Shown: positions 610-36,502 of the stretch, piece after piece
How the letters are laid out: every line of letters starts with the position of its first letter
How positions within the stretch are numbered: position 1 is the stretch's first letter
The notes under the pieces: model-generated
Told to the model about the DNA's origin: nothing
Seen by the model: only the letters and a program-made list of their open reading frames with translations
Databases searched by the model: none
Translations under genes and position numbers: made by a program
Assembly (NCBI GenBank): GCA_010093605.1
Contig: MU004184.1
Coordinates: 1,002,801 to 1,066,800 of the forward strand
DNA: 64,000 nucleotides
Source: Lophium mytilinum
Lineage: Eukaryota
Direction: 5' to 3'

Positions 610-1719
610 GCGGAGTCGGTCAGTTGCCAATGTGGAGCCGAAGGTTGAACAATTCATTGGTCAGCTACCAACGTGGGGCCCGTAGCTTGAATAACGTTAT
701 TCCTCTCAAACGGGGGTACTAGGGACAAAAGCTATGTATGGCGCACTGGGCCTGTAGATTCACAGAATGAACAGTATTCTGCCTGAATTGAAACTTGTTT
801 ACATTGTATGCTTATGGCTAGTGCACCGTTTGTTTCTCGTTCCCCAATTTTGAGTGTACGGGCATATGTTGAAGCAGCCACGTGATGTTGTTGTCTAATT
901 AAGATGAAAGTATAGCCGACCCCCCTCGGCAGCTTTAGTTTCTCTCTAGAGTCCTTCGAATCCTTCCATAGGCAAAAGCAAATCCATGAAACAGCGTCGA
1001 CTGATCCCTCGGATTGGTCGTTCGAGAAGGTCCATAACTCGCGCCCTCTTCTAACCTTACGATGGTTTGCAGGCTTCTACGCTTTCGCAACGTGCAGTTT
1101 TTCGACAGTTCGAGCCCCAATAGTTCATATTATTGTACACGAGTAAGGGAAGTAGAGTTTTCTCGTGAACTCAATCTGGCCTGCTAACCCCAGCACATCC
1201 CCCTCACTCCGCCCCTGATGCACTTTTAGCGTACCAGCGATTCGGGATCGACCGTCCCGTGCTGACGGATGTTGGAAAAGGTTCCCCGCGTCCTTTAGGC
1301 CTCTCTACGGTGACTACACTACGCAGTCTTGTCAGTCAATTTGAGCATAGACAGAGGTGTAGATAAGCCATGCATTGAATTCTGCATTGGAGATATCCAA
1401 GACGCAGGCGCGGGCTGTACAGGATCGACTTCGTTCTTGGCACTCGGTTTCAGTCAGCGCATGGGCGTCATATCGACCTGGTCTCGGCCTTCCTGTGGCG
1501 CAAGACGGCAACACTTGCACCTCAGCTCAGGACGACGAAACCCTCCTTTGTTTTTAACTCCAGCACGCCCAAGGCACCAATCGTCACCGCAAGTCTCTGG
1601 CCAAGGATCCCAAGCTCTTCTACGAAGCAGATTTCGTTTCTTCAGTTTTCAGCTTCGCAAATGCACTTTGATCGACCGGGAGTGGCCCTCTGAACGCCCT
1701 TGTCCATGTTGCCACTCTC

Positions 1720-4700
1720 ATGGGATTGCCGATGCGTGGACAGTCCATGGCCTCCATGGAGACTCCCGACGATCTTCAGTTGCTTACAGCATTCTTCGAT
1801 CATGATGAAAGACCTACAGTGGTTGTCACTCGATCTCTCGAGCAAGCCGGCGGCGCCGTTTGTCCTTCAATTGCGTACTACAACGAAGCTTTCCGTGGCC
1901 ATTTCAGTATTGCCTCCTCCGAGGGAATCAACACTACAGCCTTGGAGTCCGGATTCAGAGAACTGGCCACCAACCCAGCTACATGGGCCTCTATCAAAGA
2001 AGGCGTAACTAGCGAGATTTTGTTCGACGGTAACGCATGGACAAGGCGTATCATAGGCCAACGATGGGGAATCATCTGCCTCAAATGCACTTCGAACCAC
2101 CATGCTGTCCATAGTGGTACCGAAGAAACTGGATTTGCACGGCCTCTCAAGCGACGTCGTCTCTCATCGAACAGCCATGTCGTTCCTCCAACATCTCATC
2201 GCCACCTCCCAGAACCGGATTATCTACCGTCACCTGAGTCTACCTCAGGGTCATCGGATGCACCAGCGCCCGTCTCGTTAGACTGGACACGTCGTTTGCA
2301 CGATGGTCTATCCGACTACATCCAGATGTTCCAGAAGCGTGACTGGTCAAAAACCTGCCTAGGACCCATCACAACATGGAGTCATGCACTGAGATCCAAC
2401 ATTTTCGTGATTATGAACAGTCCAGAGCAAAGAGTCTTGCTGTGGGGACCAGACCTCGCCCTCATTTACAACGACGCAGTCTGCCACGGCATGGGCAAAA
2501 AGCATCCTTCTGCCTTGGGCCTACCGGGTTCCGTCGGTTTTGCCGAAGGGTGGCGTCCTCTTCATCGCAACATCAAAGAAGTCTTGCAAACTGGTAGGGT
2601 AAAGCAGGTCATCGATCACTATGTGCCGATGGGAAGGAGTGGCCTCTCGCCAGAAGAAACGTACTTTTCGTATACGCTTCTCCCGCTAATAGATGAAAAC
2701 GGCAACGCGACAGGGGTACTCAAAGAACTCACAGAAACAACACGACGCGTCATCACGGAAAGACGACAAGCTACGATCAAGAAGGCTGAACAAATGGCTG
2801 CCGCTCGAAACATCGCCGAGTTCTGGAACAACGTCCGGAATATACTGGAGTCCAATGCGCAGGATTTTCCACTCGCTCTTCTCTATTCCTTCGCCGGAAA
2901 AACTATGCTAGTAGATGACAGTAGCCGTAACAGAATTTCGAGGTATTGCAGCTTGGAAGGTGCTGTAGGCATCACGACAGATCATGACCTAGCAAGCTCA
3001 CGAATAGAATTACGCAAAGAAGGTTCTGGCCTCGAGCCACACTTTGAGAAGGCACTTTCGACCGGAAGCCCGCTTCTCCTACGTAAGAGTGATGGCTCGT
3101 TTCCGGAATCACTGGCTATTAGGATCCCTGATCGAGGTCTTGGCGGAACTTGTGCCTCTGCTTTGGTCTATCCAATTCGCCGTTTAGATGGCACGGGCGC
3201 CATTGGATTCCTCCTGCTTGGGCTAAATCCTCAAAGACCGTTCGACGATGATTACAGTGTCTTCATTAATACGGTCATCGATCATCTTGTTCGGGCAGCG
3301 GCCTCAATCATCGTTCCGGAGGAGCAGAAAACTCTCCTTCGTCGGACTGAGATAGCAGAGAGCAATGAGCGGACCTTCACAAAGTTAGCTGAAATAGCTC
3401 CTATCGGTATAGCGCAGTTCACACCGCAATGCATATGCATCTGGAGGAACGATGCATATGACTACTTGAGCGGAATGAATGGGCATTCTATGTCGGAGGC
3501 CTACGACGGATGGGATGCGCCAATACACCCAGATGACCGACCGAGGAGTTATGCTGTCTTCCAAACGTTGCTGGAAAAGCCTCATTCAATCACCCTAGAG
3601 CTTCGCGTTCGTCGGCAAGAAGCCGATGGAAATGGCCTAGGTCAGTGGCGCTGGCTCTTATGGCACGGCTCCTCAGAGGCAGATGCGCACGGGAATCTTG
3701 AGGTTATAACCAGCTTTCTTACTGATATTTCAGATCAAAAGCAGGTGGCGAAATTGCAGACGCAGAGGCTTGAGGATTTGCTGGAGACGAAGAGGCAGAG
3801 CGAGAACTTTATTGACATGGTAAGCGCCATATTGCTTGTAGGCAGTTTTATTAGTAGTGCTAATCATCAATAGACGTGTCATGAGATGCGTAATCCTCTA
3901 TCAGCAATGATACAGTCCGCAGACGGTATCATTTCAGCTTTCGAGCTTTCCAATACATCGACCCCGACTTCCACACAGAGCGCAGTCATAGACGCCGCAC
4001 AAACAATCATCCTCTGTGCTCAACATCAGAAAAGGATTGTTGACGATATCTTGACTCTATCCAAGCTGGATTCCAACTTGCTCTTGATATGCCCTGACAA
4101 CGTTCAGCCTATCGTTCTAGTTGAAAACATCATTCAGATGTACCGAGCAGACCTCCGCGGTGTAGATGTCACAGCTTCGCTCTCGATCGATCAATCCTTC
4201 AAGAATCTTGCTGTAGGCAAGGTTCTGCTGGATCCCGCCCGTTTGTCGCAAGTGTTGATTAACCTGCTCACCAACGCCATCAAGTTTACGTCTACTGCGA
4301 CGGAGCGAAAGATTACAATCATCATTGGAGCGTCTCTTACACAACCAACTTCTGGACCGACCGACGTTTCGTATATTCCGAGAGTAGCTCATCGACTGTG
4401 CTCAGATCCTGAAGGAGGCGAGTGGGGGACCGGGGATGAGGTCTTCCTACAGGTAGGCTCAAACCCCAGACGACTTGTCACTATGTGTGTCCCAATACTA
4501 ACTCATCCTTCAGTTCGACGTCGTTGACACTGGCCGAGGGCTGTCCCCAGAAGAGATGAAACTCCTCTTCCTCCGCTTCTCCCAAGCCTCACCAAAAACC
4601 TACGCCCAATATGGAGGGTCCGGACTCGGCCTCTTCATCTCCAGAGAGCTCACCGAGCTTCAAGGAGGACAGATAGGCGTGCACTCCGTCGCAGGCCAAG

Positions 4701-5365
4701 GAAGCACCTTTACCTTCTACATCAAGGCTCGGCGATACGTCCCGCCAACCCTTGCACTACTCAAATTCTCCGACTCGCTCAGGAACTCAGAGCTTGCTTC
4801 CCGCGACAATTTACCAGCTACTCCCCCAATTCTATCAGCGCTGAATAGCCGGAGTGGCTCTGTGCTGTTCAATGTCCTTCTTGTTGAAGACAATGTGATC
4901 AATCAGAAGGTGCTTGCGCAATATCTGATACGCGAGGGATGTAAAGTCCATGTCGCGAATCATGGAGTGGAGGCGTTGGATTTCTTAGCACGAACAACCT
5001 ATACCAGATCATCCTCGGATCAGGCTTCCCAAGACTCGCCGCCATTACCCCTCGATATCATTCTGATGGATCTCGAAATGCCCTACATGGATGGCCTGAC
5101 ATGTGTCAGCCGGATCCGCGAATTGCAACGCGATGGTACCATAAACTCCCATATCCCAGTTATTGCGATCACTGCGAACGCGAGGAAGGAGCAGATTGCT
5201 AATGCGTTGGATCATGGTATGGTGAGTAGCCCACCCCTCACTGCTCTTGCAATATGTCTTCATAATTCTAACATGTCCCAGGACGACGTCGTCACGAAGC
5301 CATTCCGTATACCAGAGTTGATACCGAAGATCGCGGACCTAGTGCAAAGAATTAATGCATCCTGA
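1720..5365 (+). CDS. Hybrid sensor histidine kinase (PAS/GAF-like input, HisKA, HATPase, receiver)
   Basis: Introns 3820..3873, 4453..4513 and 5222..5281 join three ORFs. H-box FIDM/TCHEMRNPL, N-box NLLTNAIKF, G-boxes DTGRG and GGSGLGL, receiver LLVEDN...ILMDLEMP...TKP, PAS motif IHPDD. Confidence 0.93.
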
Positions 5366-5845: not shown

Positions 5846-8290
5846 TCATAGCTCGGTGATAAGCCTGGCCCCCAAGCTATCAACACTAGAATGATACCGT
5901 GTTATATCCGAGAACATAACACAGACCGGGCTTTCTCTTAGCAAATGAGAAGGATCGTCGCAATGCTTTTTCTTGTCGAAGCATTCCTGACATATATCAA
6001 ACTGTCCACCCTCGCAAATAGCACAATTATAGGTGATCGAGGTGATTTGTGCGCCACAAATATCACAGGATACAGATCTGACCCGGCATTTCTGGAAAAC
6101 GTTGACGTCCATTGACGGTGGGGACGAGCCGCTTTGTACGCCTTGTATACCTGGGCTCATGTCGAAACGCGCAGAAGGGAATCTAGATAGAAGCTCCACT
6201 GCACGAGGCCGAGCGTATGGACTCTCGGCGCAGCAATCTTCTACGATGAGACGAAAGTACTCTGGTATCTTCTCTGAGAGACGTGGTAATGTAGCATAGT
6301 GAGAATAAATCCCGACCTGACATAGTCGCAAATTTGTATAGAGGGTCTGCTTTAGACTCTGGGCGCTTCGATCAGTTGCCCAACTTTCAACGAGGACCCA
6401 TAGTAATTGGCCCAACTGATATATATCGAATTCCTTGGTTATAAGCGGTCTTTTCGTGCATTCCGAGTCCAGATGAGACAACTTGGCGTAGGTCTGGAAC
6501 TCTGGGGGATAGAAAGGGAGCGCTACAGCCCTGAAATCAAGAGTATTATTGAATCGGTAGAGATGAAGTTGTCCGAGAGCGTCCACCAGGATGGGCGGTC
6601 GCAGCATCCAAAGCGTACCGACCACGAAGTGGCGCCCTGCGGTGTGCACAGAGCTGATCCGATGGATGAGCTGCCACGCTAGATTTTCGATTTGGGACCA
6701 GTTCCAAGACTGTGATAGCCTGCTTGCGTAGTCAAGTAAGAATTCGCACTCTGTTTCGGGTAATTTTACCAGGTAGCTTTGCAAGTCGTGCTGGTCATCG
6801 TCCATAGCCAGACCGAGAAGACGTACAATTCCCGGTTCATTCCGCAGACAGTGGAGGATTTCGATGTTATAGCAAAATTCTGCGGTTGGAGGTTGCTGAT
6901 GTGACCTCACTTCTTCGACAAGTTGCCCCTCGAAGATTGACATGAAATGGTGTGAAATTTCGAGCGGGGCTAACTGAATCACTTGTCCTGTGGAGACTTT
7001 ACGGCAACCTAAATGATGCAATGAAGACAAAATTGCTTCTTTGGAACACTCTGTTGGGACGTGAATTTCCTTAAGACCTGGACGGACCAGTGCGGATTGC
7101 TCCATTCTTGGCACGACTGTGCCCTCAGGGCTCTCGTTCGATAGCCAGAAGCGGAGATGACTGTTTTCAGTGATCTTTGGCATGTGCCTCGCGAAACCTT
7201 GCTGCATAACCTCTAGCAATGACGTTGGTACGCCAAAGGCTTTCATATGGGTTTGCAGGAACCCATATTTAGGGTCGCTGTGAAGGGCCGTAACCGTCCA
7301 GTATTTGGAGTCTGAAGGTATTTCGAGTGATATGTCAAGATGTATCCACTGTCGGGGTGATTTTTGGAAGAGCATTCGGTAGTAGTTGGTCCGCGAAAAC
7401 CTTGAGCTTGTTTCCTCAAAAAGGGCGGTGATGATTACTTTCGGTAATATGGATTTGCTATATATCTCCGGATAATCGTTCGGAAAATGCTCGAGAGGTG
7501 TTGTTTGCCGACCAAGCTCAAAGAGTTTGTCTTTATGCTGCTTAATCTCGCTTTCTGACATGTCTGTGGTATTTGAAAAGGGGACTTTAGAAACACATTT
7601 GGTGACCGATGCGCTCACGGTGTCAATCTGAGATGGCCTCATGTTGTCCGATGATTGGTAATCCTGCATCCACACTTCATCCACGCGGCGTAGAATGCCT
7701 AGCATGGCGCGAGTCTGAGCGAAAATATCCAGAAGCGTGGCATCCGACCTGACGCTCGTTTCGCTATGCTGGATCAGTTTGCAAGCATTACATAACCGTT
7801 GGAACCGAGTCCTTACAGCGTTTCCATGCTAACTGCCGCAAGAACTCTCTGTTTGGATTCTCGAAGCCTTGATTGCAGCACTTCGACTTTCTTCTTATGT
7901 ATAAGCCACGACACTGGTCGTACGTTCCCATTATCGGATCGGAGGAGCTTATCCTGGATAACGGCTTTGAGCTCCCCGATGGTCTGTCGTGACGTGCACA
8001 AGGCGGACTGGAGGTGTGGGCTGAAGCGATTGGGGTTACGGTATTTGATGGCCTCCAAAAATTCAGTCAGCTCTGCGAGATCCGTCTGTTGACGCGGTTA
8101 GTGTGTATAGCTAACATGACAATTATATTGGCATTATCCGCGGTGCGAATACCAATCATCGCCCTGGACTTACTTGTACATCTTTCAGCTCATTTTGTGC
8201 CTTGTAAATGGTTCGAGCGAGTGACAGAACCGGCTCGAGGGTTTGCGCGATAGTGATGATGCTCGCGATTGCTCCCAAAACTTCTGCCAT
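5846..8290 (-). CDS. HeLo-like N-terminal domain + pseudokinase + C-terminal ZZ zinc finger protein (~767 aa)
   Basis: Exons 8290..8174, 8085..7817 and 7763..5846 splice in frame with canonical GT-AG sites. The N-terminus MAEVLGAIASIITIAQ...SWLIHKKKVEVLQSRLRESK is typical of fungal STAND N-terminal helical domains. Kinase-fold motifs GIVRLLG, YPPE, DIYQLG and P..RP are present but no HRD/DFG. ZZ: CDIC...CAIC...FDICQEC...H..H. Confidence 0.75.
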
Positions 8291-12500: not shown

Positions 12501-14384
12501 CTACGACTCTTGAGAGACGCTGGATTGGCTTGATGTGGAGGATGGCCGGCTCATGTACCGGAGCTCTTGCAGCTCCTTCCTCAGCTTCGCGTTCTCGGCC
12601 TCGACTTCATTGATCTTCTTCTCGCGGGCGGCGATCTTCTTCTTAGCCTCTCTGCTCGCCGCGGTCAGAGGATGGTTTGACTTATCCTTCAGTTCAGCGA
12701 GCTCAGCAAGGTGTTGTTCGCGTTCAGCATGCAACTCGTCGATATGATCGTTCAGCTCGGTGCAGTCGCGATCGCGCTCTTCAGTCTTGCTCTGCAGTTC
12801 AGTGATAAGCTTGTCGACTTGCTCTTGGAGCTGCTCGACCAGGGAGTCATCCGAGTTCTTTGCATTCGCAAGCTCTTCTGTAAGGGTAACTTTTTCTGCG
12901 TTGAGAGCTTCGAATTCCACACCTGAAGCAATCTGTTCTTCGAGGGCGGTCTCGAGATCATTCTCTACTTTCTTAAGCTTGGAAGACTCTTCAGCGAGTC
13001 CAGCTTCCAGATCGGAGATCCTAGCCTCCTTCACCGCAAGCTCATTCACGAGCTGGCCGTGCGCTTTAGCAAGCTTAGTCGCATTACCCTTGAAAGCCTC
13101 GTCTTTATCGCGCATTTCCTGGATGAGCTTCTCGCGCTTCTCAGTCTCGATCGCAAGCTCTGCTTCTTTGTCGTGTACGGTCTGCTTAAGACCGGCGACA
13201 TCAGTTGCGAGCTCTGTAACTTGCACTGCCATATCCTCCTCTGTCTTTGTCTTCTGCTTGATCGTGATGGCCTTCTCTAGGAGCTCAGTTTCTTGCTTCT
13301 CGAGCGTCTTGTTTAGCTTCGAGAACTCGGCCGCTTGAGCCTTAGCTGTCTCAGCGCGTTGAGCCTTGGACTCGCTATCGAGCTCCTTCCGAAGCTTCTC
13401 TTTCTGCCAATCGATGTTAACCTGAGTGGTGCTGACCCAACGGGCCTGCGACTCAATCACAGCATCCTTGGCTTCGAGATCGTGGCGCATCTTCTCGAGC
13501 TGGGCTTCCACAGTCCGTAAGCGCTTGTTCTCAGCGCGCAGCGTCCCAATCATCTCATGCAGCAGCTGCAGCTCCTTATTCTCTTTGCGGAGGTCATCGC
13601 GCTCCTCTTCAACAAGCTCAAGCTGCTCGATCCTCAGATGCAGCTGAGCCATCTGCTGACCCGTCTTCTTCCCATCCGTCTCGTACGCATTCTCCTGCTC
13701 CTCAAGTTGCCTGCACGCCGCGTCGATCTTCTCCTCAAGGGCCCAATTCTCGTCTTTCAACTGCTGAACTGTCTGCTCAAGCTCCGTATTCGCGTTCTCG
13801 TACAGCTTTACCTTGCTGGTAGCTTCATCGGCTACCACTCGAATTTCCGCCACAAAGCCTTCGAGAACCTCATTCGTGTGGTAGAGGTTCACGATCTCCG
13901 CATTTGACTTCTTGAGATCCTTCATTGCGTCTTCGCCGATCTCTTCGATGAACTCATTTAGAGTGCGAACCGTTTCCTCCAGCTCGGCCTTTTGGGCGTC
14001 CTTGGGAGGTACGCGCTTTTTCCGGGTTGCTAGGAAGCGGGAGAGCCATGATGTCTTCGCCGCCCCGGTGGCTGTGCTAGTAGCCGTAGTTCCTGAGAGG
14101 AGGCTACCAGCGGGCGTGTTTGGAAGTGTCTGGGGGGAGGGCGCAGTCATGACGGTAATGTCCGAATCATTTGATGTTGTGTCGATCGATTCGGGCTTGG
14201 TGTCGGCAAGATTGGCCTGCTCATTTGTAGAGCTCGTGGCGGACGTTGTGTCTTTAGGGTCTTGAGCGTTCGTAATGTTGACCTCTCCATCGATCAGAGT
14301 GGCTTTCTTGCCCGAGTTACGGAGGACCATATGGGTAAGAACGGGGTTGAAGGGTGCACCCCCTTGAGTAGTTTGAGCTAGCAT
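12501..14384 (-). CDS. Long coiled-coil protein of unknown function
   Basis: Intronless ORF of ~627 aa with an S/T-rich N-terminus followed by E/K/L-rich heptad repeats; TATA-like TATATAGA upstream near 14560 on the minus strand. Confidence 0.75.
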   Translation of the reverse strand: MLAQTTQGGAPFNPVLTHMVLRNSGKKATLIDGEVNITNAQDPKDTTSATSSTNEQANLADTKPESIDTTSNDSDITVMTAPSPQTLPNTPAGSLLSGTTATSTATGAAKTSWLSRFLATRKKRVPPKDAQKAELEETVRTLNEFIEEIGEDAMKDLKKSNAEIVNLYHTNEVLEGFVAEIRVVADEATSKVKLYENANTELEQTVQQLKDENWALEEKIDAACRQLEEQENAYETDGKKTGQQMAQLHLRIEQLELVEEERDDLRKENKELQLLHEMIGTLRAENKRLRTVEAQLEKMRHDLEAKDAVIESQARWVSTTQVNIDWQKEKLRKELDSESKAQRAETAKAQAAEFSKLNKTLEKQETELLEKAITIKQKTKTEEDMAVQVTELATDVAGLKQTVHDKEAELAIETEKREKLIQEMRDKDEAFKGNATKLAKAHGQLVNELAVKEARISDLEAGLAEESSKLKKVENDLETALEEQIASGVEFEALNAEKVTLTEELANAKNSDDSLVEQLQEQVDKLITELQSKTEERDRDCTELNDHIDELHAEREQHLAELAELKDKSNHPLTAASREAKKKIAAREKKINEVEAENAKLRKELQELRYMSRPSSTSSQSSVSQES

Positions 14385-16616
14385 GTTCCTATCCAAGCTA
14401 GAGCTACTTTGCGGACTCAAGTCTGAAATGTTTGGAGGGAAAAAACTGCTACGAGCTGTCTTCTTGAAACTGTGAGTAAGGGTGTAGGTGGCAGATTCAA
14501 GAGAGCAAGAGAAGGCTTCTTGTAGTGTATCGACATGTATCAGCGGAGCCAGGCTCTATATACTTCCATAAGGTGCACAGAGGACAATGTGTAGAATCTG
14601 GCATTGTGCATGAAAAAGTCTGGAGGCTGAAAGAAAACTTCATTGTACGATGGCACAATGTTTCGGCGGCACGATAGATGTGCTTTGGAGATGATGGCGA
14701 ACATAGTGCTAGCTAGAAGACGATGGAATAGACTAGAGGTAAGGATCGTTAAGATTGATCGTGTGGGAGGACGGCGCTGAATGGGCCATGAAAGAAAACG
14801 AGAGGAAGAAAGCGGCCAACATGCAAGATGGAAGAAGCTGGTAGTGGATAGCATCAGACTAGCAGAGAACTAATTAGACCTTCGGCGCAGGGATGGCCTC
14901 CTTGGTGTTTTCAATATGCTCCATTGAAGGCTCGTCTAACAGCTTGAGAATTTCGCGTGTGATAATATCTTTCTCTCCCCAGCATTCAAAGATTGGTCAT
15001 GATGTCAACAACGGTCTTGCACAATGGGGCATCTTTAGCAAGGGGGCATTTTGCGAAAAGTGATACTGGTGACACACGGTATCAAGGAAAAAAAGCGCAG
15101 ATTGGGTTTTTTATGACGTGGAGACTTGTCGTTGAATATGATCTGCTCGATCCGGGATCAGAAGCTTTACCCACGACCATAATAGAAAGTATTCTGCGAT
15201 AAAATGAATCACATTGGTTGAATCTCAAAATAAGACGGCTAGGAGGGAAGAGTGACGCGGGAGATATGGAAGCGATATCGTACGCAATGACTAATGAGCA
15301 ATGCCCGAGATGGCGAGTATCGTTCTTAGGATCGCTTTCCCTGGAGTTCATCTGCCACCTTACCATCGGCGGGGATTCCATTGAAGAGATATCTACAATG
15401 TCGATGCGAAGAACCTATGGGCAAGGTGTTGAGCGAAAGAAGTCGGGGAGGGTTCTAATTGTAACGTCCGGACGAGAATTGTGCCGCTAACGGGGAGTCG
15501 TCTGCGGACCGACATGATGAGCTTCGTTTTCAAGCTAGCGTTTCCGATGAAGAGCCATATAGAGGCCTTGGATTTGAAAATGTATGTAGAAAGTCATCGC
15601 GATTCGAGGAGGGCCGCTGTTGAGTTGATTAACGCGTTTGGCTTGGCTGGGTCTGATTCTGTTGGAGAGCTTTTACGAAGTAAAAAGCCGATCCGACGAA
15701 CGCTCCTGACGAGAAAAGCAGAAGTCGGCCTTAGCAAGCGAATGACCCTGAGGAAACCCGCCCTTATATGATGAAAATGGTGTTCAGCTTAAATCACTTG
15801 CTTGCAAGTAGCGAGAGAATAGCTCTAGAGTAACAAATAAGAAAAGGCAATGCGCAGCTCGACTGCTGCCTATGAAAGGTCCTTCGCTGTCTACTGGTCT
15901 CAGTCTGCTAGAAATTGAGCGCCGCAGAAGACACGAAGTCGCCATCTTGATGGAAGATGCAGGTGTAGGTTGGAAAGGCGGTGAAGAGTGCAGGTGGGAA
16001 TGGGAGCTGGAGGTTTGTGGCTGTCTATGTGGCTTGTGGCTGCGTGCGCTAAGCCCGATTTGCCACTATCCATAAATTAACCTCCACGTATCTAAGGAAG
16101 ACACCATACGCTTCCGAACCCTCAAAGGTTCAGGCAAACTTGCATAACTACACCACAGTTGTAGGCCATTGGTCTCACTAAAAGGCTTTTCAGAATCTCC
16201 TTTTTAAGAATCTCAGGAGCGAGGCTGCCTACTGCGCCCTCTCAGCCCTTCCACCGGTGGGAAAGGGCTTCTGGAACCTGACTCACTCCCAAGACACCGG
16301 TCAGACCAAAGCTTCCTTGGAAGTCTATTTAGTAGAGTAAGACCATACATTTCGTACACCAGGTTTCCTGTCCACTTCTTCTCCACTACGCCGCCAGCAC
16401 TATCCCCACGTGTTCAGCCTTGCGGAACACGTACCCAACACTCGTTCAGTTCGCTGGTAGCAGAGCGCGCCTCCGCTCTATCTCACCAAGTATGAACGTT
16501 CCATTACTTATGTTGTATCGCAATTGGAAAGCTCTGAGAGTGTACTACGATTGGGGTGTCTAAATACTATGAAGCAGCTTACTTACCTTGAAGCTAGAAT
16601 CCTTCCGCCCCAAGCC

Positions 16617-18512: not shown

Positions 18513-19280
18513 ATGTGGAAGCATGCTGTCTTTGGGAGAAAATCGATGTGGTTTCTGGCACGTGAAGGTTATGTTTCCTTTCATATTATTCTGGGGTACC
18601 TTTCTGATGCTATGAGGCTCTTGGGTAAGCATCCTAGGCTGAAAGCCTCATGGATCTGGATCTTCTCTAATTTTTCATTGAACTTCAGCGATCAGCTTGC
18701 TGTAGTGGAGGACCCTTTAGGTAGCGGTTAGTACACACAAAATGAAGGTTTCTCTACCTAATCCATGAGAGTCCTGATGTGTTACCTGATGCAGGAGTGA
18801 AAAGTCTGACACGTAGATACGTGATCGGTTCGAACCCAATATGACTGGGCAAAGGCAATAACGCGAAAAATGTGCATCTCCGGTCAACACGACGACGCCT
18901 TGCATACAATGTTTGCAACCGCTTGCTCTTATACAAAGGGCGCTTTGGTATGGCATCCGTATATGCAACATAGCTCGGGCTACTGCTAGAATTAGAACCA
19001 GAAGGCAGAAATTTGAGGCTGGCGATGCGAAGAGTTGGAGGACTTCACGCCTTCTTAATACTACGACAAGTGGCCCCCACACGCTAGACCCGATTTATCC
19101 ACACCGTGCCCGTTTACACTGAGCCCTGTCTCCCTCACCCTCTTCGCCAAGAATCAGCCCCCACGACAAGGCTGCATATTTTGACTTTCAGCAATTGCAT
19201 CACCATCATGTCTTCTCCTCTCTTATCAATGGGGCTTTCACTCTCGTGTTCTTCATTGACGCTGTACCTTATTCTACTCC

Positions 19281-22200
19281 ATGGATCCGGTCACTGCCCT
19301 GGGGCTGCTCAGTAGCGTCGCGCAACTTGCCGAAACGTCTTTCAAGATCATCAAGCTACTGGACACGATTAGAGAAGGAGGCAAGTCTCGTCGAAAACTT
19401 TGTGACGAGATCACATTACTATGGATGACGCTACGGAATCTCGAGACCCAGTTCGGACCTCTCTCAGCTGATCAGGATGGGGACTGGATGAAGCCCATCG
19501 ATTCCCTCGCTGATCACAACGGCGTATTTGATCAGCTTCGTACAGCCCTAGACGATGTTTGGGAAAAATTGACAACAAGTGACACGAAACGAGCAAAGAT
19601 GATGCAGACACTCAGATGGCCACTTGACCAGGGCTATGTCGATCGCATTGTCGGAAAAATTGAGCGTCTCAAGACGTTGGTCATTATGGTCATGGGACAA
19701 ACTAGCATTGCGCTGGCCCAAGACATGCGAGGTGATGTGTCTTATGTCACGGAGACCGTCGAGGATGGTAAGTTTAAGAGGATCGTCGACTGGCTCTCGC
19801 CTTGCAACTTTGTACAGAGACAAGAGACCATCACAGCTGCCCCTGGGACAGGCGGCTGGTTCTTCACGAGCGAGCAATTCAAATCCTGGGAGTCAGGAGA
19901 CGACCGCTGGCTGTGGTGCTATGGCATCCCGGGGGCTGGCAAAACATTTCTCGCCTCGACTGCTGCGAACGAGCTACGAAGGCTCCACGAGATCGAAGAC
20001 GACATACTTGTCCTCATCGCATTCTGCAGTTTCGACTCTTCCGATTCTCAGTCAACTGACCATCTTGTTACGGCTCTTCTCAAGCAAATCGTACAATGTC
20101 GCTTGGCACTTCCTGAAAATCTGGAAGTCTTATATAAGAAGCACCACCCACATGGAACAAGGCCTAAACTGCCGGAATTTTGCGATATACTAGGCGCGGC
20201 GATATCCCAAAGTCCGAGGACGTATATCATTATAGATGCGCTTGACGAACTGGCTGATGAATCGAAGCGAGTCACCTTACTTGAGACTATCTACGCTTTG
20301 AAAGGGGACCCTAAAGTAATGATAACCTCAAGAAAGATGGAGAGCATCGCGAATCGTTTCGGATATCCTCTAGCTGACATCTACTGCGACGGCTGCGGCA
20401 CGAAGCGACTTGAGACCTACAACCATTGTGAAGATTGTGTTGATTACGACCTCTGCGATGATTGTCGGCAAAGCGGAGAGATAGGTGGCCACGTCTTTGT
20501 GAGACGATACAGCAGCATCAAAATGCGAATTGCAGCTCAGCCTGAAGACATCAGAACTTACGTAAACAGACGAATCGAAGTAGAAGAAGACCTTCGCCAG
20601 ATGGTGGAGCGGCGGCCTGAGTTGCGAGTTCAGATACTCGATACGATCTTAAAGAATGCCCAAGACATGTATGAAGGCTCGCTTTCTTTGTTGAGCAACA
20701 GCCCGCTAATATTACATCAAGGTTTCTGCTCGCAAGATTCCATATGGACGCACTAGCAGAATGCCTGACCGAGTGGGAAGTTGAAAACGCACTCAATACT
20801 CTGCCTAAAGGAATCAACGGCACCTACGACCAAGCTATGGCTCGAATCAGCAAGCAAAGCCCAAATCGGCAACGAGCTGTGAAGAGGCTTCTTCTGTGGG
20901 TTTCATATGCAGAACGACCTCTCACTGCAAAAGGCATCGAGCATGCCACAGCAGTCCACCGCGGCGTCCGCGAAATTCATTCGGGGCACGTTCTCAGCGC
21001 GAAGACTCTTACCTCGCTGAGTGCCGGGCTTGTTATCATCGACGAGAATGAAATGGTACGTCTAACGCATAAGACTGCAGAGGATTACTTCCTTCACAAA
21101 CGGGTCTCACTCTTTCCCAACGGAGATATCGAGATCGCAGAATGCTGTCTTGCTTACCTCCAACTCGCCGCATTTGAAAATGGTCCCTGCACAGCACCAG
21201 ACGAGTCGGTCGCTTTTGAAGCGCGCCTGAGAAAATATCCGTTTCTGGGTTATGCCGCTGGCAATTGGGGACACCATGCCCGGCGGTGTAAATCGAGTAT
21301 GGACATCATCGCACCGCAAGCACTTATGTTTCTTCGCAGTAAGCAGCTCCTAGAAGCTTCCGTTCAAGCTCTGTGGTACACCGACACCATCTCACTCGAC
21401 AGTTGGGATGTTTCCGGTGGCGTCGACGCTCTACATATTGCCTCTTGGTTTGGACTACACGAAATAGTAGAGGCACTTCTAGATGAGGGCGCTGATCCCA
21501 ACTCCCGCGATTCTCGGAACACAACACCGCTGACATATGCCTGCTTGAAAGGTCATCTCGACGTAACAAATACTCTTCTCGATGCCGGCGCCCACGCGAA
21601 TCTCGTCGATGACCGAGGCTCTACCCCGTTGCATTGCAGCGTGAAGAACCGTTACGTGGACCTTACGCGTAGGCTCATCCGAGAGAAGGATGTGGCGATC
21701 AACGCAACTTATACCTCCTGGAATAACTTCACTGCACTCATCCTTGCGTGTCGGGATGGGGACACCGATCTCGTGAGGGCTCTTCTCTCGCGGTCCGATG
21801 TAGATGTGAACCTCGCCTCCCATACTGCGCATTGGAATCCTCTCATTATAGCCGCCTACAATGATAATAAGGAATGCATTGAAATCTTACTACAGCATCC
21901 CAAGATTGAAAAAGACTACACAGACGCCGGGGGGCGAACGGCCCTTCACTGTGCCGCTAAGACTGGACACATTAAGAGTATGCAGGCATTACTTCAGGGC
22001 GGCGTAAACCCGAACATCAAAGACGCTATGGGCGGGCCACCGATTCATCGAGCTGTAGACGAGAACGAGCTTGCTGCGGTCGACTTCGTGCTCCAACACA
22101 AGGCGAACTGTAACTACACCGACAACTGGGGAAGGAACATCCTCCACGCTGCCGCCCTCACGGCTCGCACTCAGATTCTTCGACTCTTGCTAGTGACTTG

Positions 22201-23152
22201 CAAGGACTTGAATGTCAACGCTCAAGGAAATGATGGGGAAACGCCCTTACATGATGCAGTTCGCGGTGATCACTACTGGACGGCAAAGACCCTACTCGAA
22301 TTTGGTGCGCGCACTGATGTCCTGAATAAGAGTGGTCGAACGCCGGTTCGCGCTGCTCAAGATGCCGGCAATACACGACTCCTCGAGGCATTGAAAGAAG
22401 CTCGCGACAAGGAAATCGCACTGGACGACCAGATTATCGCTCAACTCATCCAAAAGGCAGACACGTTCGCGATAAAGACCGAACAACCGCTTACCTTGGC
22501 CGTCCAGAAGAATGACCTCGAAATACTACGAGAACGTATCGCTCGAGCCAAGATCGACGAGCTCAATGCTTATAGCCCGGATTCAAAGCATACGCCACTC
22601 CACATTGCATGCGTATATCGCGACGTAGAAGTCGTAAAGTTATTGCTGGAGGCAGGGGCCTTTGTGGATCCTATCGATACTTGGGGGCAAACACCATTGT
22701 GCATGGGATGCGCTGGAGGGAACTTAGATATCGTCCAGCAGCTCGTTAAGTATGGTGCGGACGTCAACAACTCTTCCTATACTCCTTGGGAAATTGCTCT
22801 GACAAACGACCCGAAAGCTGCTGTGTTTCTGCTCGCACAACCGCAAACCAAAATCGACAGGGCTAGCGATTTGATCGCTAAGGGTCTGGGCTGGGCTGCT
22901 GCTCTGGGCAATCTAGAAGCTTGCAAGAGGTTGGTTAAGGCTGGAGCACCGATTCAGCTAAAGAGTACCAATGGGATGACGCCGATTCAGGTCGCGAAGA
23001 ATTATGGTCATAAAGAGGTGGAGCAGTTTTTGTTTGAGGCGGCGGCAACGCAGAAAGCGTTGTCGAGCCCCGGAGTAACGCCTCTTGCTTCTCCCAAAGA
23101 TGAGATAAATATTGGTGACAGGGAGGGTGGCGTTGGACACCCACCTGGGTGA
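19281..23152 (+). CDS. Fungal NLR: HeLo-like N-terminus, NACHT with inserted ZZ finger, winged helix, many ankyrin repeats
   Basis: MDPVTALGLLSSVAQL N-terminus; Walker A GIPGAGKT, Walker B IIIDALDE, ITSR; intron 20669..20721 restores the MFLLARFHMD motif; more than 12 TPLH-type ankyrin repeats. Confidence 0.93.
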
Positions 23153-29117: not shown

Positions 29118-30897
29118 ATGTTGGCGAATCTTTGGGATGTGATTGTGGTGGGCGGTGGCCTCGCGGGGAGCGTCATCTCAAACAGGTTGTATCAGAATGA
29201 TACGTCACTCAAAATTCTCTTGATTGAGGCGGGCGAGGACGTGTCGACGAACACTATCATTCCGTATGCGGACAACCAGTCGCTCCTCGTGCCGTCGCCG
29301 TGGAGCTGGAATGATACTACGGTCCCGCAGACGTCGATGGACAACAGGGTGATCCCCAACCCAGCCGGGAAGGGTCTTGGTGGAGGCACCATCATCAACT
29401 CATGTAAGTCATGCTATCTACTTTTCAAGTAGCACACACTAACATTCTATCAGGTGGATGGATCCGTGGTAACGAAAATGACTTTGACTTGTGGGCCAGT
29501 ACTGTCGGCGACTCGAAATGGAGCTACAATGGCCAACTGCCTTACTTCCGCAAGATGGAACACACATACAACGCCTCCGCAAACCCAGTACAACACGGCT
29601 TCGTCGGACCCATGTGGTTCGCTTCTGTATCTTCAACTGGCCGCAACTACCCTCTCCGCGATACTATCAAGTCTGCCTGGGGCGAAGCAGGTCTGCTACC
29701 TCCCGCAGATGGAGACGCCAACGACGGCACACCTATCGGACTGGGAGAGCTCAACGAGAACCGCAAGAACGGTCTTCGCGAACTCGCTTCCTCCGCCTAC
29801 CCCCTCGGCGGTGTCACTGTCCTTACCAACACTCTCGTGGCTAAGATTCTGATCTCTAAAGTGGCCGGATCTCTCACAGCTACAGGCGTGAAGCTTGCGA
29901 ATGGAACCACGTTCAGCGCAACAAGACAGGTCGTCCTGTCTGCTGGCGCCTACCGCACACCTCAACTCCTCATGCTCTCCGGCGTCGGTCCCACTGCTCA
30001 GCTGAAGAAGTTCGGCATTACCCAGCTCGTCAATGCGCCAGCTGTTGGCACTGGGCTCGCTGATCATATGCTCCTGTCGCTGTACTGGAAGCTTCGTCCT
30101 GACGTCGCCGCGGAAGGTGTTGCTCTCGGAAGCTCGAACCCTCTCTTCACGCAACCTCAGTTCGGAGATGGTGTGCCGGCTGACTGGGTCGCGACTGAAT
30201 CTCTACCCAGAGCTGCCCTGATAGCCGCCATCACTAAAGATGAGGGCAAGGCGCCGTCTTCTTCCCACCCGCTGTTGAAGACCACGCGCTCCTTCATGGA
30301 GACTTTGGTTATCTATGCTGCCGGCAGCGCTGCGGATCCGGTTATCGCATACAACGGCTCCCATATCACCACCACCTTGGTTGGTCTGCTGCCGACTGCG
30401 AGGGGTACAGTCACGCTTGCGTCGACGAACCCAGCTGATCATCCGATTATCGATCCTCAGTACTTCAGCACCGAAGTCGATAAGCTGAACTTCCGTCACG
30501 GGATCCAGAGAGTTGCGCAGATGTTCCTTGGGACACCGACTGGTAACGCCACTATCGAAGGAGAGACACCTGCGGATGGATTCGCACCGATCACTCTTTC
30601 ATCCTCGGATGACTACCTAGAGGCAAGGGCCAGACATAGTTCCGGGTAAGCTGGGCTCTTTTCAATCTGCAAACTTGAGTGATGATATTAACGAATTGCA
30701 GGAACACATACCACCCTATGGGTACCGCCGCCATGGGCAAAGTCGTCGACAAGAACCTCAATGTCATCGGCGTCAAGAACTTCAAGATCGCAGACACCAG
30801 CGTGTTTCCGGTGGTCATCACTGCGCATTTGCAGCAGGCGACGTATGCGATGGCCGAGCAGGCTGCTATGATTATTGCGGCGGCGTGTAATTACTAA
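29118..30897 (+). CDS. GMC (AA3-type) FAD oxidoreductase
   Basis: VIVVGGGLAG, GKGLGGGTIIN, SAGAYRTPQLLMLSGVG, catalytic YHPMGT and a second His; introns 29404..29453 and 30646..30701. Confidence 0.93.
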
Positions 30898-31449
30898 AGA
30901 GCCTTATGTGATGAGGAAGATGTGGAAATGCATTGGAGAAAAACTCTTGAAAAGCGTAGACTGGCTGGAGGGTGTATCTCGCCCTCTTTAAAGGCCTTAA
31001 TATGGTGCCACCGTGTATATAAGCCTATGCCGCATATTTCAATCATGTCTCCTGAATTTTGACCCCTTCTTGAAGAATCCGCCCACCGGAAACTTGATTT
31101 GTTGATAGTGCTCGCGAACATCACATGCGTGTTTCACCATTCCATGGTTCGGACCTACAAAGGTCTTGTCCTCCACATCCTTGAACATGCATTGCAGTTG
31201 CACCGAGAGAGTTTGTTGGCTTGCCGAGTGCAGCTGAAGAGACTTCGTGCCTGCAGTGCCGATCTGCGGAGGACGGGATCTTTCTTTGTGAAGTTGATGT
31301 ATTCACGATGAATAATGGAATACTAAATGATAGTGCTGCCTATCATTGCCTCATCCATCTCGTTGATTTTTGTCGGCGATGTGGTCATAATCTTCGCCAG
31401 TCTAATGACTTCGGCGGCGCGAGTTGGCTCCCAGATTTCGGCACGGCGG

Positions 31450-31651
31450 ATTTGTCGTATTCAAAACAGAGTACATTCCTTGGCGTTTTTCTCCGTGCAC
31501 CCCCCCTAATTTTGTAAGCGCGCGCCTGGGATTATTAGATAGGTTATATATTAATTTTTAACTACTTTTTAATATACCTATATTAGCTATTAGTAAGGCC
31601 TCTTATATATATATTAAAGCTTATATACTAATAATTTCTAGTATTCTAGTA
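31450..31651 (+). repeat. Left terminal inverted repeat
   Basis: ATTTGTCGTATTCAAAAC...GCGCGCGCCTGGGATTATTAGATAGG...CTAGTA is the reverse complement of 36503..36705 apart from a few transitions and one small indel. Confidence 0.93.
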
Positions 31652-33698
31652 CTACTATAATATTCTTAATATAGTGTAACCTTTAATAATAATACCTAAC
31701 GCTCTAGAGACCTACTAGTAGCTAGAGAAGATAGAGAAAGAGAAGAAAGAGAAGAAGTAGGTACTTTTATAGAATTATTTAAAGTTACGCTAGAGAATAT
31801 ATAAACTACTACCTAAAGAGAAAGGTATATATACTCTAATAATAGCTAAGCTACTATTAAAGCTACTATAAGACTAGGTATAGATCTTTTAGCTAAGGTA
31901 GTAAAAGAGAGAAAGAATAGACTATAGTGCAAGGCTTAGATAGCTAAGAAGGCTACGCGTAAGGCTATAGTAATAGATAGGCAGCGCGCGGTATAAAAGA
32001 AGGCAGCGTAATAGTAAGAAAAGATAGCGCAATAGTAAGAGAAGATAGTATAGTAGTAAGAAAAAGTAGTATAGAATAAAGAGATCTAGAATAGTTATAA
32101 CTCTATACTAGTAGTACTACTATTATTACTACTAGATAGAGATAGAGATCTACCTTTTATATTCTCTTCTACTTTTTTTACTCTAGCGCGCTATAAGCGC
32201 GTAGTATTAATATTACTACTATTATCTACTAGTTCTCTAGACTATAATATTAACCTATCTTTCTAGCTATTTATTAATAAGAAGAAGGCGGGTAGTAAGA
32301 TAGTAGATATAAAGATATAGCTTAGCCTCTCTAGTAATAATATTAAGCTAGAACTTAATAAGCTAGTTATAAAGGCGCAGGCTAATAGTAACTACTAGAA
32401 GTATACTATTACTTTTTATACTACTATAATATATACTTTAAATAGTAAAGGCAGTATATAAATATATAATATAGATAACTTCTTTATATTCTCTTTTAAT
32501 AGATTATTTATAGCTCTTAATATAAAGTAGGCAGTCTTCTAGAAAAGTACTATAGCGCTTCTATTTAAATATAAAGTTATATCTAATCTATCTAGAAAGT
32601 TAATTACGCCTAAGTTTTTACCGGCTATAGCTATATCTAAGAGTTATAGCGGGAAGCTACTATAGTAGTATAAGGCTATAATAAGTAGAATTACTAATAT
32701 AAGAGACTATAATATAGACCTAATATAGTATTAAAAGTGCACTAATAAAGAGTATAGTAACTTTAATAGCTACTACTTTTTTAATAGCGGCAAGTACTTT
32801 ATTATACTTACTAAGTAGTAGAAGGTATAAACTAATACTATAGCGCGCGGTAAGGCTACTATATTAGTGCCTCTAATTAAATTATTAAAGGAGCTTTAAA
32901 TAAACAGGCCTATAGGTTTAAAATATTATTAGCTAGTAAAAATAATAAGAGTATAGCAGGCGGTAAGTACTATAGATAATATTAAGGTAATAATAAAGTA
33001 GACTATAAAGCTTAGTAGCATATAATAGATAATAGCTATAGCTAAGAGGTTTTTAAGTATATAGTAGCCTCTATTATAGCCTTAGTTATAGCCTTAATAG
33101 TAGTAGTATAGCTACTATTCTTTTTCTTCTCTACTACTCTATTATCTACTAAATCTATATATTTCTATTAGGTTTCTAGTATTTCTATATATGCTAGTAT
33201 CTATATCTATACTTCTTCTTTCTCTACTACTACTACTACCGCCCTTAACTTAGGCCCCGGCCGCCGCAGAACCTTACTAACTAAAAAGCTTAAGCCCGGT
33301 ATATTCTAAGAAGAAGAATATAGATATACTAGAGGCGTTCTTTTATTAGAAAGTTAATAGTATATAGAACGCTAGTTTATACTAGCGCTAGTAGTAGGCG
33401 GCCTAGATAGTAATAAATTAGGCTTAGAATATAGATTTTCTCTATTAGATAATAAATAGAAGCTTAAAGGCGTATTATAAGGCTATATAGCTAGAAATAT
33501 TAGATAGAATAGCTATAAAGTTTACTAAGAAGCTATATAGATTTAAGTAGCTATACTAGAAGAATAAAGCGGCGTTTAATCTTACTCTACTAGGTAATAG
33601 AGGGTAGAGCGTATAGTAATAGATATATACTATCTATCTAATATATACTATCTATAATATATATACTATCTATTAATTAAAGGGTATTTATAGTTTAA

Positions 33699-33960
33699 GG
33701 CTTAAGTATTAGTGCTAGTAAAATATAAAAATATATCTTAATATCTTGCGGCTTAAGTATTAGTAGTAAGAATTCTATTCTAATATTTTATAGCTTAAGT
33801 ATTAGTAGTAAGAATCTTATTTTAATATTTTAAGGCTTAAGTATTAGCGCAGGGGAAATTTGCCCTACGCTAATACTTAAGCCTTAAAATAGAATCCTTA
33901 CTACTAATACTTAAGCTATAAAATATTAAAATAAGATCTATACTACTAATACTTAAGTCT
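33699..33960. repeat. Head-to-head arrays of a GCTTAAGTATTAG repeat forming a large palindrome centred near 33858
   Basis: Four copies on the + strand (33699-33850) face three inverted copies (33863-33960); the inner arms 33826..33854 and 33863..33890 are near-perfect complements; further copies at 35221-35280. Confidence 0.85.
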
Positions 33961-36502
33961 TAAGTTAAATACTATATAGAGTATATATAAAATAGAAAGG
34001 CTATATAGAGATAGAATTTATTACTTTATTATATCTTAGTAAATATAAGTCTAAATTATATAAATAGATAGCTAAATTACGCATTTAGACGCGTATATTT
34101 ATATCCGCGTGCTAAATATATAGAAATATTAATTAGTAGTAATAAACTTTTAAAGTTATAGTTATAGTTTCTAAGTATATAGTTAAATAGACTTAATTCT
34201 CTACTTTTTTCTTCTAGCATAACTAGCCCTAGGCTTTAGAGCCTACTTAAATACTACTATATCTCCCGCAGTATTAATCTAAGTATAGCGCTTACTTCTA
34301 ACCCTATATATACTATATTTACTACCTAGATTATTATTAGTATAGAAATTAATATTATACTAATAATAGCCTCTAGTAGGTATATTCTAGGCGCACTCTA
34401 GATATATACTATAGGCTAGGCCTATCTAATTCTAGCTATATTAGCTATTAATAAGCTCTATATAGGCGAGCTTAGCGCAGTAGAAGTGCTCTTAGAGGGC
34501 TATAGTAATAGTAGAGAAGCTAAGGGCGGTAGTAAGGTTATTAGTATACTAAGAGGGAGTTAGCAGGCCTAGAATAATAGTAATAGTAAGGGGAGAGAGT
34601 AGATAGTAAGTGCAGCGCTTTCTATATAAATAGGTTAGCTAGATTTTTAAGCTACTATACTAGAAATTATATATAGTAGAGAGGGATTAGTTCTCTTTTC
34701 TTTTTTCTTATTCTTATTCTTCTTCTAATTAGGTATATTATAGATATCTCTACTAATAGTAAGAGTAGAAAGAAGATATATAGGCCTACTACGCACTATA
34801 TAAAGCCTTTAAGGGCTAGAATTCTCTAGGCTCTTACTAGAGAAAGCTTCTAGCGCCTTATCTTTAGCTTAAACGCCTATTATCTTCTTCTTAGTAAGAA
34901 GCGGCCTAGCTACTACTACCTATATTACTAGAGAATCTAGGTAAACTCTAAGAAGCCTAAAGGGGTACATAGTAAGAGGTAAAGAGAAGAAGGGCTCTAT
35001 AAGAATATTATTAATTAGGCTATTAATAGAGCTCTAATTACTAGTATTATTAGCTATAGTATTATTAGCTATAGTATTATAAAGGTAGTAATTAATAGTA
35101 TATAGAGTCTAAAGAAAAAAGAGAGTTAAAAAAGAGGTAAGAATATATAGAAAAATAAATAATAGCTATTAAGCTTTACTATATAACTTTACCCTATACT
35201 AATATATAAGCTATAGATTATCCGCTAGCGCTAATACTTAAGCCTTAGATTATCTACTAGCGCTAATACTTAAGCTTTAGCCTAGAGAGTATATAAAAAA
35301 TAGTAAGGCTATATATAGAGTATATATTAAATAGAAAGGCTATATATAGTATATACTTAGGTTTTAATCTACTTCTCTATCTACTTCTTTTTAATTTAAG
35401 TATTAGTATTACCTCTCTTATATATATCTAGCTTAGCCTAAATTCTATCTATCTCTTCTCTTATATAATATACTTCTCTAGCTATATAATAGAACTACTT
35501 TTAAGTAAAGTAATTATACTAGCTCTACTTAATAGTAGCTCTTAGAAAGTTACTAAAGTTATAATAGGCTAGGCGCAGGTAATAGTAACGCCTACGGATC
35601 TATATCTTTAGTATAGTAAAGGTTAACTCTATAGAGTTAAAATCTAGTAAGTATAGTAGTAGAAAATATACTAGATATTCTTACGCCTAGATTATATATA
35701 TAAGAGCTTTCTTAGTATATATTTTAATATTATCTAGAATAATAACCTTTAAGTGGCCCTTAAACTTACCTTCTATAGCTAGTAGAAAAGTAGTAATAAT
35801 CTAGCTTTAAAACTTCTTAGTATTAAAGTAGCCCTCTTATATAGCTATATATAGTAGCTACTTTACTATATTTATTACTATATATATACTCTATATATTT
35901 CTATAATTTATAGGCCCCTAGTAGTGCATAGAACTTCTAATAGATGCGTATATATAATAGCGCTAGCTAGTCTTCTTATTAAATATAAACTTATTAAGAA
36001 AGATAAGATCTTTTAGCTTATAGTAACTAGTAAGCTTTAAGTACTTTAACCTTAACTTCTTACTTATATAGTTTAACTAGCGCTAGACCTACTTTTTACT
36101 CTATTTATTTCTCTTTATTATATATAATATAGTTAGCTATAAAGCTTTAATACTACGCTTAAGATTAAGCTATATTTAAATCTTATTTTAATTATGCTAG
36201 CTATCTTCTAGAAGCTATTAGAGCACCGCCTTTTTATCTACTATAGTAAGCCTTTTTAGCTATTCTATCTTAATTTATAGAGGCCTTATAGGCGCGCTAT
36301 AGAGAATTATATATTTTTCTATATTATATACTATCTTCTAGTAGATATAAATAACTTTAGTAATCTATTTAAAGTACTTATTAAGCTAGAGAAGCTATAT
36401 AATATCTAGGCGCTGTAAGGCTAATATTAGGGTTTAATTCTAGAGTTAGGTTTACGCGCTAGTAGAGAGGAGGATTTAACTATAGATTAAGTTATTAACT
36501 TA

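Follow-up and report, generated by a model that had tools for sequence, protein, structure and literature searches.

Does the fungus Lophium mytilinum carry an executioner of cell death built like MLKL? The question is raised by a gene on the minus strand (8290..5846) of a 64,000-nucleotide (nt) stretch of contig MU004184.1 (assembly GCA_010093605.1, positions 1,002,801 to 1,066,800), which we call the window and in which all positions below are counted. An earlier note, made from the letters alone, had described the product as MLKL-like: a HeLo-like helical domain fused to a catalytically dead kinase and a ZZ finger. Our analysis leads us to favor, with a probability of roughly 0.6, the reading that the protein is an MLKL-like executioner, in which the N-terminal bundle would kill at the membrane while the body of the protein would restrain it and receive the signal.

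Three exons are joined in one transcript

A six-frame list of open reading frames (ORFs) shows, on the minus strand, 660 codons at 5846..7828, a second frame upstream at 7813..8097 and a short frame with an ATG at 8290. Our gene model has three exons and a coding sequence of 2304 nt including the stop, and it reproduces the spliced length of 767 amino acids (aa) given in the earlier note. Both introns carry fungal consensus signals. The parts of the gene and its product are as follows.

8174..8290, minus strand: exon 1, residues 1-39 (39 codons), from the start ATG at 8290; hydrophobic first helix at residues 4-22
8086..8173, minus strand: intron 1, 88 nt, GTAAGT...CTAAC...CAG
7817..8085, minus strand: exon 2, residues 40-128 and two bases of codon 129; remainder of the predicted HeLo-like bundle
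7764..7816, minus strand: intron 2, 53 nt, GTAAGG...CTGAT...TAG
5846..7763, minus strand: exon 3, to the stop codon at 5846-5848
7499..7763, minus strand: start of exon 3, residues 129-217; end of long helix 4, a linker helix at ~135-165 and a probably disordered stretch
7058..7498, minus strand: middle domain, residues ~218-364 (~150 aa); three long beta strands and helices
6158..7042, minus strand: pseudokinase, residues ~370-664; kinase fold by Foldseek and VIA
5945..6076, minus strand: ZZ finger, residues ~692-735; all Cys/His zinc ligands present
5846..5944, minus strand: C-terminal tail, residues 736-767, family consensus Y.SSV...G.R; ends at the stop

The splicing of the upstream exons to the kinase exon, on which the earlier description depended, is visible in a contig of 8936 nt from run X3. 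This contig matches 5700..8450 with 0 mismatches and omits exactly 7764-7816 and 8086-8173, so that all three exons are joined precisely (joints 8174|8085 and 7817|7763). Read on the plus strand, the omitted pieces have CT..AC ends, corresponding to GT..AG on the gene strand. The 'RNA' label of X3 is a guess, and no listed run is recorded as RNA; because two canonical introns have been removed exactly, we read the contig as cDNA-derived, as its spliced joints argue. The evidence for splicing is this one contig, which also spans the convergent neighboring gene and is therefore uninformative on transcript ends. DNA run X1, which may be the source of the window, is collinear with it. In a ~95% identical contig of run X4, there is a 9-nt insertion in exon 3 and there are 1-nt insertions in intron 1 (8147) and upstream of the ATG, a pattern that fits the exon map; an exon would not tolerate the 1-nt insertion at 8147. 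An alternative intron 2 (GTTAGC donor, 65 nt, giving 763 aa with the frame kept) was rejected, as the X3 contig uses the 53-nt intron.

The N-terminal domain is related to HeLo-like domains

Relatives of the protein were gathered by a word-indexed protein search, which returned 13, nearly all of them ORF-only calls without the N-terminus, and by an exhaustive profile search, which returned 2052 cluster representatives at E≤0.001, of which 868 remain at E≤1e-10 and 328 at E≤1e-30. A family size of 13 is thus an index artefact, corrected by the exhaustive search. Further word-indexed searches with residues 1-180 of the relative P0028 recovered only P0028 itself, and with a family alignment 12 proteins, none of them a new full-length member; a family-alignment pattern run on metagenome contigs matched 44 stretches, with 0 relatives among them. 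The sample used below comprises 159 sequences, the window protein and 158 relatives, taken from the 13 of the word-indexed search and the best 150 of the exhaustive one.

The spliced protein aligns end to end with the NCBI-annotated relative P0013; the bit scores are 31.4 for the N-domain (1-197 against 1-194, E 2.8e-12), 80.9 for the body and 32.7 for the ZZ region. Likewise, window residues 1-133 align with residues 1-138 of P0028 at 35.5% identity over 138 columns (E 1e-21), and the window N-terminus is homologous from residue 1 to the N-termini of at least 22 family members. We built a hidden Markov model (HMM) of the N-domain from 11 family N-termini, with the window excluded, and searched it against the 122 N-termini of at least 30 aa found among the 159 sequences. 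It matches the window N-terminus with an E of 1.5e-32, and it matches 24 of the 40 sequences that have at least 150 aa ahead of the body. The link to a described domain runs through the relatives: P0013 (28.3 bits), P0092 (28.1) and P0156 (35.6) pass the 27.2-bit threshold of PF17111, formerly Helo_like_N and now PigL_N in Pfam, and four other relatives fall below it. MLKL_N (PF22215) reaches 11 bits in P0013, where the cut-off is 27. The first ~135 aa of the window protein are, by transitive homology through these relatives, HeLo-like (PF17111-type); the assignment is transitive because Pfam and folding covered the N-domains of the relatives.

Over the full length of the window protein, no 19-mer is more hydrophobic than residues 4-22 (Kyte-Doolittle mean 1.68), and the most hydrophobic 19-mer starts at residues 1-7 in all 13 of the 13 N-domain-bearing relatives checked. 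In the excerpts consulted of reviews including PMC12881547, a hydrophobic first helix is the key functional element of HeLo/HELL domains. Excerpts of PMC9815663 and PMC12881547 regard PF17111 HeLo-like domains as relatives of the four-helix bundle of MLKL.

A structural model of P0028 residues 1-180, computed with 21 relatives, has a pLDDT (predicted local distance difference test) of 89.4 and five helices, at 2-29, 32-58, 65-90, 97-144 and 150-178. This helical bundle, together with the homology to PF17111-positive relatives, agrees with the earlier description of a helical N-domain of the type found on fungal NOD-like receptors (NLRs). The proposed resemblance to MLKL was found in part: Foldseek ranks the human MLKL executioner domain (6zz1_B) first, followed by more MLKL entries and the potato Rx coiled-coil (CC), but this first row has an E of 0.11 and the VIA Z-scores lie in the range of generic bundles. 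These Z-scores are 12.3 for IncA, 12.3 for the Rx CC, 11.2 for mouse MLKL (4btf_A; root-mean-square deviation 2.1, 99 residues), 11.0 for the human MLKL N-domain, 10.7 for AtMLKL3 and 9.7 for the CC-R domain of NRG1.1. The predicted fold is thus compatible with, and its matches are enriched for, the MLKL/CC/HeLo superfamily, to which it is not uniquely assigned.

The kinase domain has lost its catalytic residues across the family

Every catalytic loss and every retained C-lobe motif that had been claimed is present in the window protein. The beta3 position lies in LVEEVR, where R415 takes the place of the Lys; HRD is represented by V510-G511-T512 in VVGTLW, with T512 replacing the Asp; and the DFG site reads YRF, R532-F533-N534, with R532 replacing the Asp. 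Retained are the APE-like YPPE, DIYQLG, the alphaF Asp575, ARP and Arg647. The corresponding columns in the 159 sequences read as follows.

HRD Asp column: D in 0 of 159; T in 57, S in 30
DFG Asp column: D in 5 of 159; R in 62
beta3 Lys column: R in 69 of 159; K in 59
alphaC Glu column: E in 12 of 159; Q in 68
APE Glu column: E in 149 of 159
alphaF Asp column: D in 151 of 159
alphaH-I Arg column: R in 143 of 159

The consistent catalytic loss that a survey of homologues had been expected to show is therefore seen at the HRD and DFG Asp columns. Judged from these columns, the family is a consistently dead kinase with a conserved fold. Loss of the beta3 Lys is not a family trait, because many relatives keep Lys there.

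In Pfam, the domain stays below threshold: Pkinase scores 14.7 bits on the window protein against a cut-off of 31.7, in the C-lobe only. Among solved structures, the sequence profile ranks the rat MLKL pseudokinase first (6vbz_A, E 6.6e-6), also in the C-lobe only, followed by TTK, MLK4 and human MLKL. A model of the exon-3 product (638 aa, 109-row alignment) reached a pLDDT of 81.9 and a pTM (predicted template modelling score) of 0.82. Foldseek matched it at E≤0.001 to at least 500 kinase chains, for which the target-normalised TM-scores are 0.6-0.72; the human MLKL pseudokinase ranks second (E 7.8e-9), among Csk, BTK, Abl and FGFR. Z-scores from VIA range from 16.4 to 18.7 over 232-265 aligned residues (model residues ~250-535), with FES at 18.7, the PTK7 pseudokinase at 18.4, the TYK2 and JAK2 pseudokinases at 18.2, rat MLKL at 17.9 and RIPK1 at 17.5. 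In both fold searches, the matches to this 638-aa model were kinases throughout (model range ~240-550), so they speak for the kinase part only.

A separate feature of the C-lobe is an insert of the form Cys-x(3-5)-Cys-x(5-10)-Cys-x3-His-x(1-3)-Pro, possibly an extra metal site, in 60 of the 159 sequences (622-642 in P0013, 624-644 in P0028). It is absent from the window protein (~6290-6350, minus strand) and from the eight close relatives checked, P0001-P0007 and P0009.

A ZZ finger and a folded tail follow the pseudokinase

The ZZ finger had been predicted, and PF00569 recognizes it in the exon-3 peptide above the cut-off (22.6 bits against 21.4) with its ligands complete. Across the family, 130-138 of 159 sequences have C or H at the zinc-ligand columns, the remainder being mostly gaps from truncated proteins. 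At the acidic positions of the motifs C-D-x-C and D-x-D-x-C, Asp occurs in 92, 96 and 122 of 159; in the window protein, Gln716 stands for the first Asp of D-x-D. In p62, these acidic residues presumably contact the N-terminus of the bound peptide. The closest solved ZZ finger is that of p62/sequestosome-1 (E 0.009), and HERC2, PRT1 and the S. pombe ZZ protein P35G2.11c also match; judging from their titles, these were solved in complex with, or fused to, N-terminal peptides or degrons. Complexes of the p62 ZZ with N-degrons are described in an excerpt of PMC6098011. With the ZZ fingers of p62/SQSTM1, HERC2, PRT1 and Nbr1-like proteins, the family shares the zinc ligands and the common acidic residues, at a weak similarity (E ~0.01). 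The presence of this finger suggests that the ligand may be a peptide.

The tail behind the finger is conserved and is modelled as beta strands with a pLDDT of ~95 (exon-3 model). It is unlike an amyloid signalling motif, because it is predicted to be folded.

A conserved middle domain separates the bundle from the pseudokinase

The exon-3 model has a helix at its residues 6-36 and a pLDDT below 50 for residues 36-84, followed by the middle domain, where pLDDT is 84-95. This domain accounts for a large part of the columns that are invariant in the close family (E91, P98, Y101, P107, E116, N126, Y128, W139, S152 and W155 in exon-3 numbering). No Pfam family and no solved relative by sequence profile matched it, and an ESM Atlas search with exon-3 residues 85-240 gave no usable match. 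The domain does not appear in the earlier note's description.

The same body also occurs behind a HET domain

Named members (ten that we looked up, and P0013 and P0028) include proteins of Ophiobolus, Paraphoma, Bogoriella, Hypoxylon, Xylaria, Xylariaceae and Hyaloscypha. The family is large in filamentous ascomycetes, and the same body spans Dothideomycetes, Sordariomycetes and Leotiomycetes. All named members are annotated as hypothetical, 'ZZ-type domain-containing' or 'protein kinase domain-containing'. Many shorter family entries begin just beyond the point that corresponds to intron 2 of the window gene; they are probably truncated gene calls.

Among the 55 members in which at least 120 aa precede the body, Pfam at E≤0.01 finds Pkinase in 26, ZZ_ADA2 in 18, ZZ in 13, PF17111 in 7, HET in 2 and SesA in 1. 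The two HET matches (PF06985, cut-off 22.5) are well above threshold, at 42.2 bits in P0067 (965 aa) and 48.0 bits in P0142 (957 aa). In both proteins, each a single gene call, HET stands in place of the HeLo-like domain, ahead of the full body. As we read it, this exchange is the combinatorial logic of fungal death-effector receptors, and it is the strongest argument internal to the family that the body may regulate death effectors, as in fungal NLRs. SesA was rejected as a separate N-terminal type: P0140 scores 19.3 bits against a cut-off of 26.3, and its N-terminus belongs to the typical HeLo-like group.

Comparison with known executioners and receptors

How far does the likeness to MLKL go? 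MLKL has a two-helix brace between its bundle and its pseudokinase. Like MLKL and AtMLKL1-3, the fungal protein has, in one chain and in the same order, an N-terminal helical bundle and then a C-terminal pseudokinase without catalytic residues. It differs in that its N-domain is of the PF17111 type; in that the place of the brace is taken by a helix, ~50 residues of pLDDT below 50 and a conserved alpha/beta domain of ~150 aa; in that the chain continues beyond the pseudokinase with a ZZ finger and a conserved tail; and in that no RIPK3-type activator is known for it or seen near the locus. The MLKL-like architecture therefore stands insofar as bundle, dead kinase and ZZ finger lie on one spliced transcript, but the protein is not simply a bundle and a pseudokinase, having an additional linker and middle domain. 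We consider the comparison with MLKL fair at the level of design.

With HET-S, HELLP and HELLF the protein shares the N-terminal bundle superfamily and the hydrophobic first helix. An excerpt of PMC12881547 describes the bundles of these three as membrane-targeting and toxic by experiment. They are short proteins, switched by a C-terminal amyloid motif that is templated by a neighboring NLR, whereas the protein studied here has a folded body of ~550 aa and a tail predicted to be folded, and 11 kb separate its gene from the nearest NLR-like one. The all-in-one fungal NLRs (with HeLo-like, SesA or HET domains) share with it a swappable N-terminal death effector ahead of a large regulatory body. 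Pfam finds no NACHT/NB-ARC and no WD40, TPR or ANK repeats in the window protein or in the 55 long family members. The protein is not an NLR; its regulatory body is pseudokinase and ZZ finger.

Genomic neighborhood

The nearest neighbors are a gene for a hybrid histidine kinase (1672-5365, plus strand), convergent with the locus, and one for a coiled-coil protein (12501-14555). The histidine kinase has PAS, HATPase_c and response-regulator receiver domains and is also covered by the X3 contig; the probable reason is an overlap of the two transcripts at their 3' ends or a merger during assembly. An NLR-like gene at 19260-23152 (plus strand) lies ~11 kb from the locus, with two unrelated genes between. 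It encodes an NPHP3_N NACHT-type P-loop (119 bits), a winged helix and many ankyrin repeats, and its first ~195 residues contain no domain at E≤1e-5. By tblastn, the 64-kb window contains only the gene itself and no paralogue. At 29408-45127, a GMC (glucose-methanol-choline) oxidoreductase, an efflux pump of the major facilitator superfamily (MFS/TRI12-type) and a cytochrome P450 may form a small metabolic cluster, unrelated to the locus.

Weighing the readings

If the protein is an MLKL-like executioner, its N-terminal bundle would be a membrane-targeting death effector, by analogy with MLKL, HET-S and HELLP, and the C-terminal body, made up of middle domain, pseudokinase and ZZ finger, would hold the bundle inactive and act as receiver or sensor. 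A trigger would then lead to oligomerisation and exposure of helix 1, and so to membrane permeabilisation. The trigger might act on the ZZ finger, as a ligand that could be the free N-terminus of a protein, or on the pseudokinase, as a modification. A predicted complex of the P0028 N-domain (1-180) with its body (240-799) scored 0.00, without controls, and speaks neither for nor against binding.

Several observations count against this proposal. When the exon 1 and exon 2 peptides of the window are scanned separately, neither has a Pfam match at E≤1. The N-domain HMM matches only 27 of the 122 N-termini, 11 of which are its own seeds, and of the 40 sequences in which 150 aa or more precede the body, 16 lack a match. 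The N-domain model is that of P0028, a 35.5% identical relative, and not of the window protein; its Foldseek comparison with the PDB gives no match at E≤0.001, its Z-scores of 11-12 are below the ~13 that generic helical bundles can reach by VIA's own caution, and the unrelated bundles IncA and dynactin score as high against it as MLKL does. In the kinase part, too, the modelled structure does not single out MLKL, which is tied with many tyrosine kinase and tyrosine kinase-like (TK/TKL) proteins, with FES, PTK7 and TYK2 as high or higher. Finally, no partner gene adjoins the locus, the neighbors being the hybrid histidine kinase and the coiled-coil protein.

The protein could instead be a non-lethal adaptor or scaffold, in which ZZ finger and pseudokinase form a cargo or signal platform as in p62 and Nbr1 and the bundle only tethers the protein or makes contacts. 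We think this unlikely. Pseudokinases commonly serve as scaffolds, the closest solved ZZ fingers are indeed those of p62/sequestosome-1, HERC2, PRT1 and P35G2.11c, helical bundles of the same shape occur in many non-lethal proteins, and some family members seem to be without a recognisable effector domain. However, an adaptor role leaves the same body behind a HET death domain in two members, which is hard to square with housekeeping, and a first helix that exceeds every other segment in hydrophobicity in all 13 members checked. The Pfam scan of the window protein also shows no PB1, LIR or UBA-type domains, and the N-domain is homologous to PF17111, which excerpts of PMC12881547 and PMC9815663 regard as a death effector.

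A role as an accessory protein of secondary metabolism, in the handling of a pigment or metabolite, would agree with the current Pfam name of PF17111, PigL_N, given after a pigment-cluster protein, and would suit the P450, MFS/TRI12-type pump and GMC oxidoreductase at 29-45 kb of the window. Those genes are more than 20 kb off, however, with unrelated genes between, and the direct neighbors are the histidine kinase and the coiled-coil protein; no polyketide synthase, nonribosomal peptide synthetase or terpene synthase was found among the 18 of 22 long window ORFs scanned, and the family occurs in three ascomycete classes with the same body. We therefore rate this role as very improbable. There is next to no chance, in our estimate, that the gene is decaying or mis-modelled, so that its upstream exons would be unrelated to the long ORF or the locus would be a pseudogene. 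Most database relatives are ORF-only calls without an N-terminus, and the catalytic residues of the kinase are lost, as such an artefact would have it; yet a contig joins the three exons exactly and the frame is open over 767 codons, NCBI-annotated relatives carry the same N-domain in one protein, the only coding indel in the ~95% identical X4 contig is 9 nt long, and the structural kinase residues and zinc ligands are kept in 130-151 of 159 sequences.

Beyond the executioner reading that we prefer lies a more ambitious form of it, which we regard as a long shot: the body may be a new, non-NLR class of fungal innate-immune sensor, in which the ZZ finger would read free N-termini, the pseudokinase would pass this on as oligomerisation and a swappable HeLo-like or HET module would execute. 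Equally speculative is the identity of the ZZ ligands in such a sensor, which might be N-degrons or else, for example, neo-N-termini that a protease creates, be it endogenous, mycoviral or from a pathogen.

What is known and what the locus adds

The architecture had been presented as new, but one sentence in the excerpted 2025 review PMC12881547 already mentions that some HELL domains occur on kinase or pseudokinase proteins. In the full-text literature outside subscription journals, we found no account of a family with HeLo-like domain, pseudokinase and ZZ finger beyond that sentence, and none of its ZZ finger, middle domain, size or HET variants. We would thus describe the core idea as not new to specialists, and the family as large, without a name of its own, and with a function that we infer.

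Killing by a bundle under the control of a pseudokinase is established in animals and plants, and the known fungal HeLo/HELL executioners are switched by amyloids or reside on NLRs. The locus described here would add a third design, expressed and spliced, whose bundle is followed by a pseudokinase and a ZZ finger. This design is widespread, with 328 clusters at E≤1e-30 in the library searched. What fungal systems of this kind sense is, according to an excerpt of the 2025 review (PMC12881547), a major open question, and the ZZ finger may offer a concrete handle on it. If the sensor reading were true, the family would be a pseudokinase counterpart of the all-in-one NLRs, and its members fungal MLKLs with a built-in sensor.

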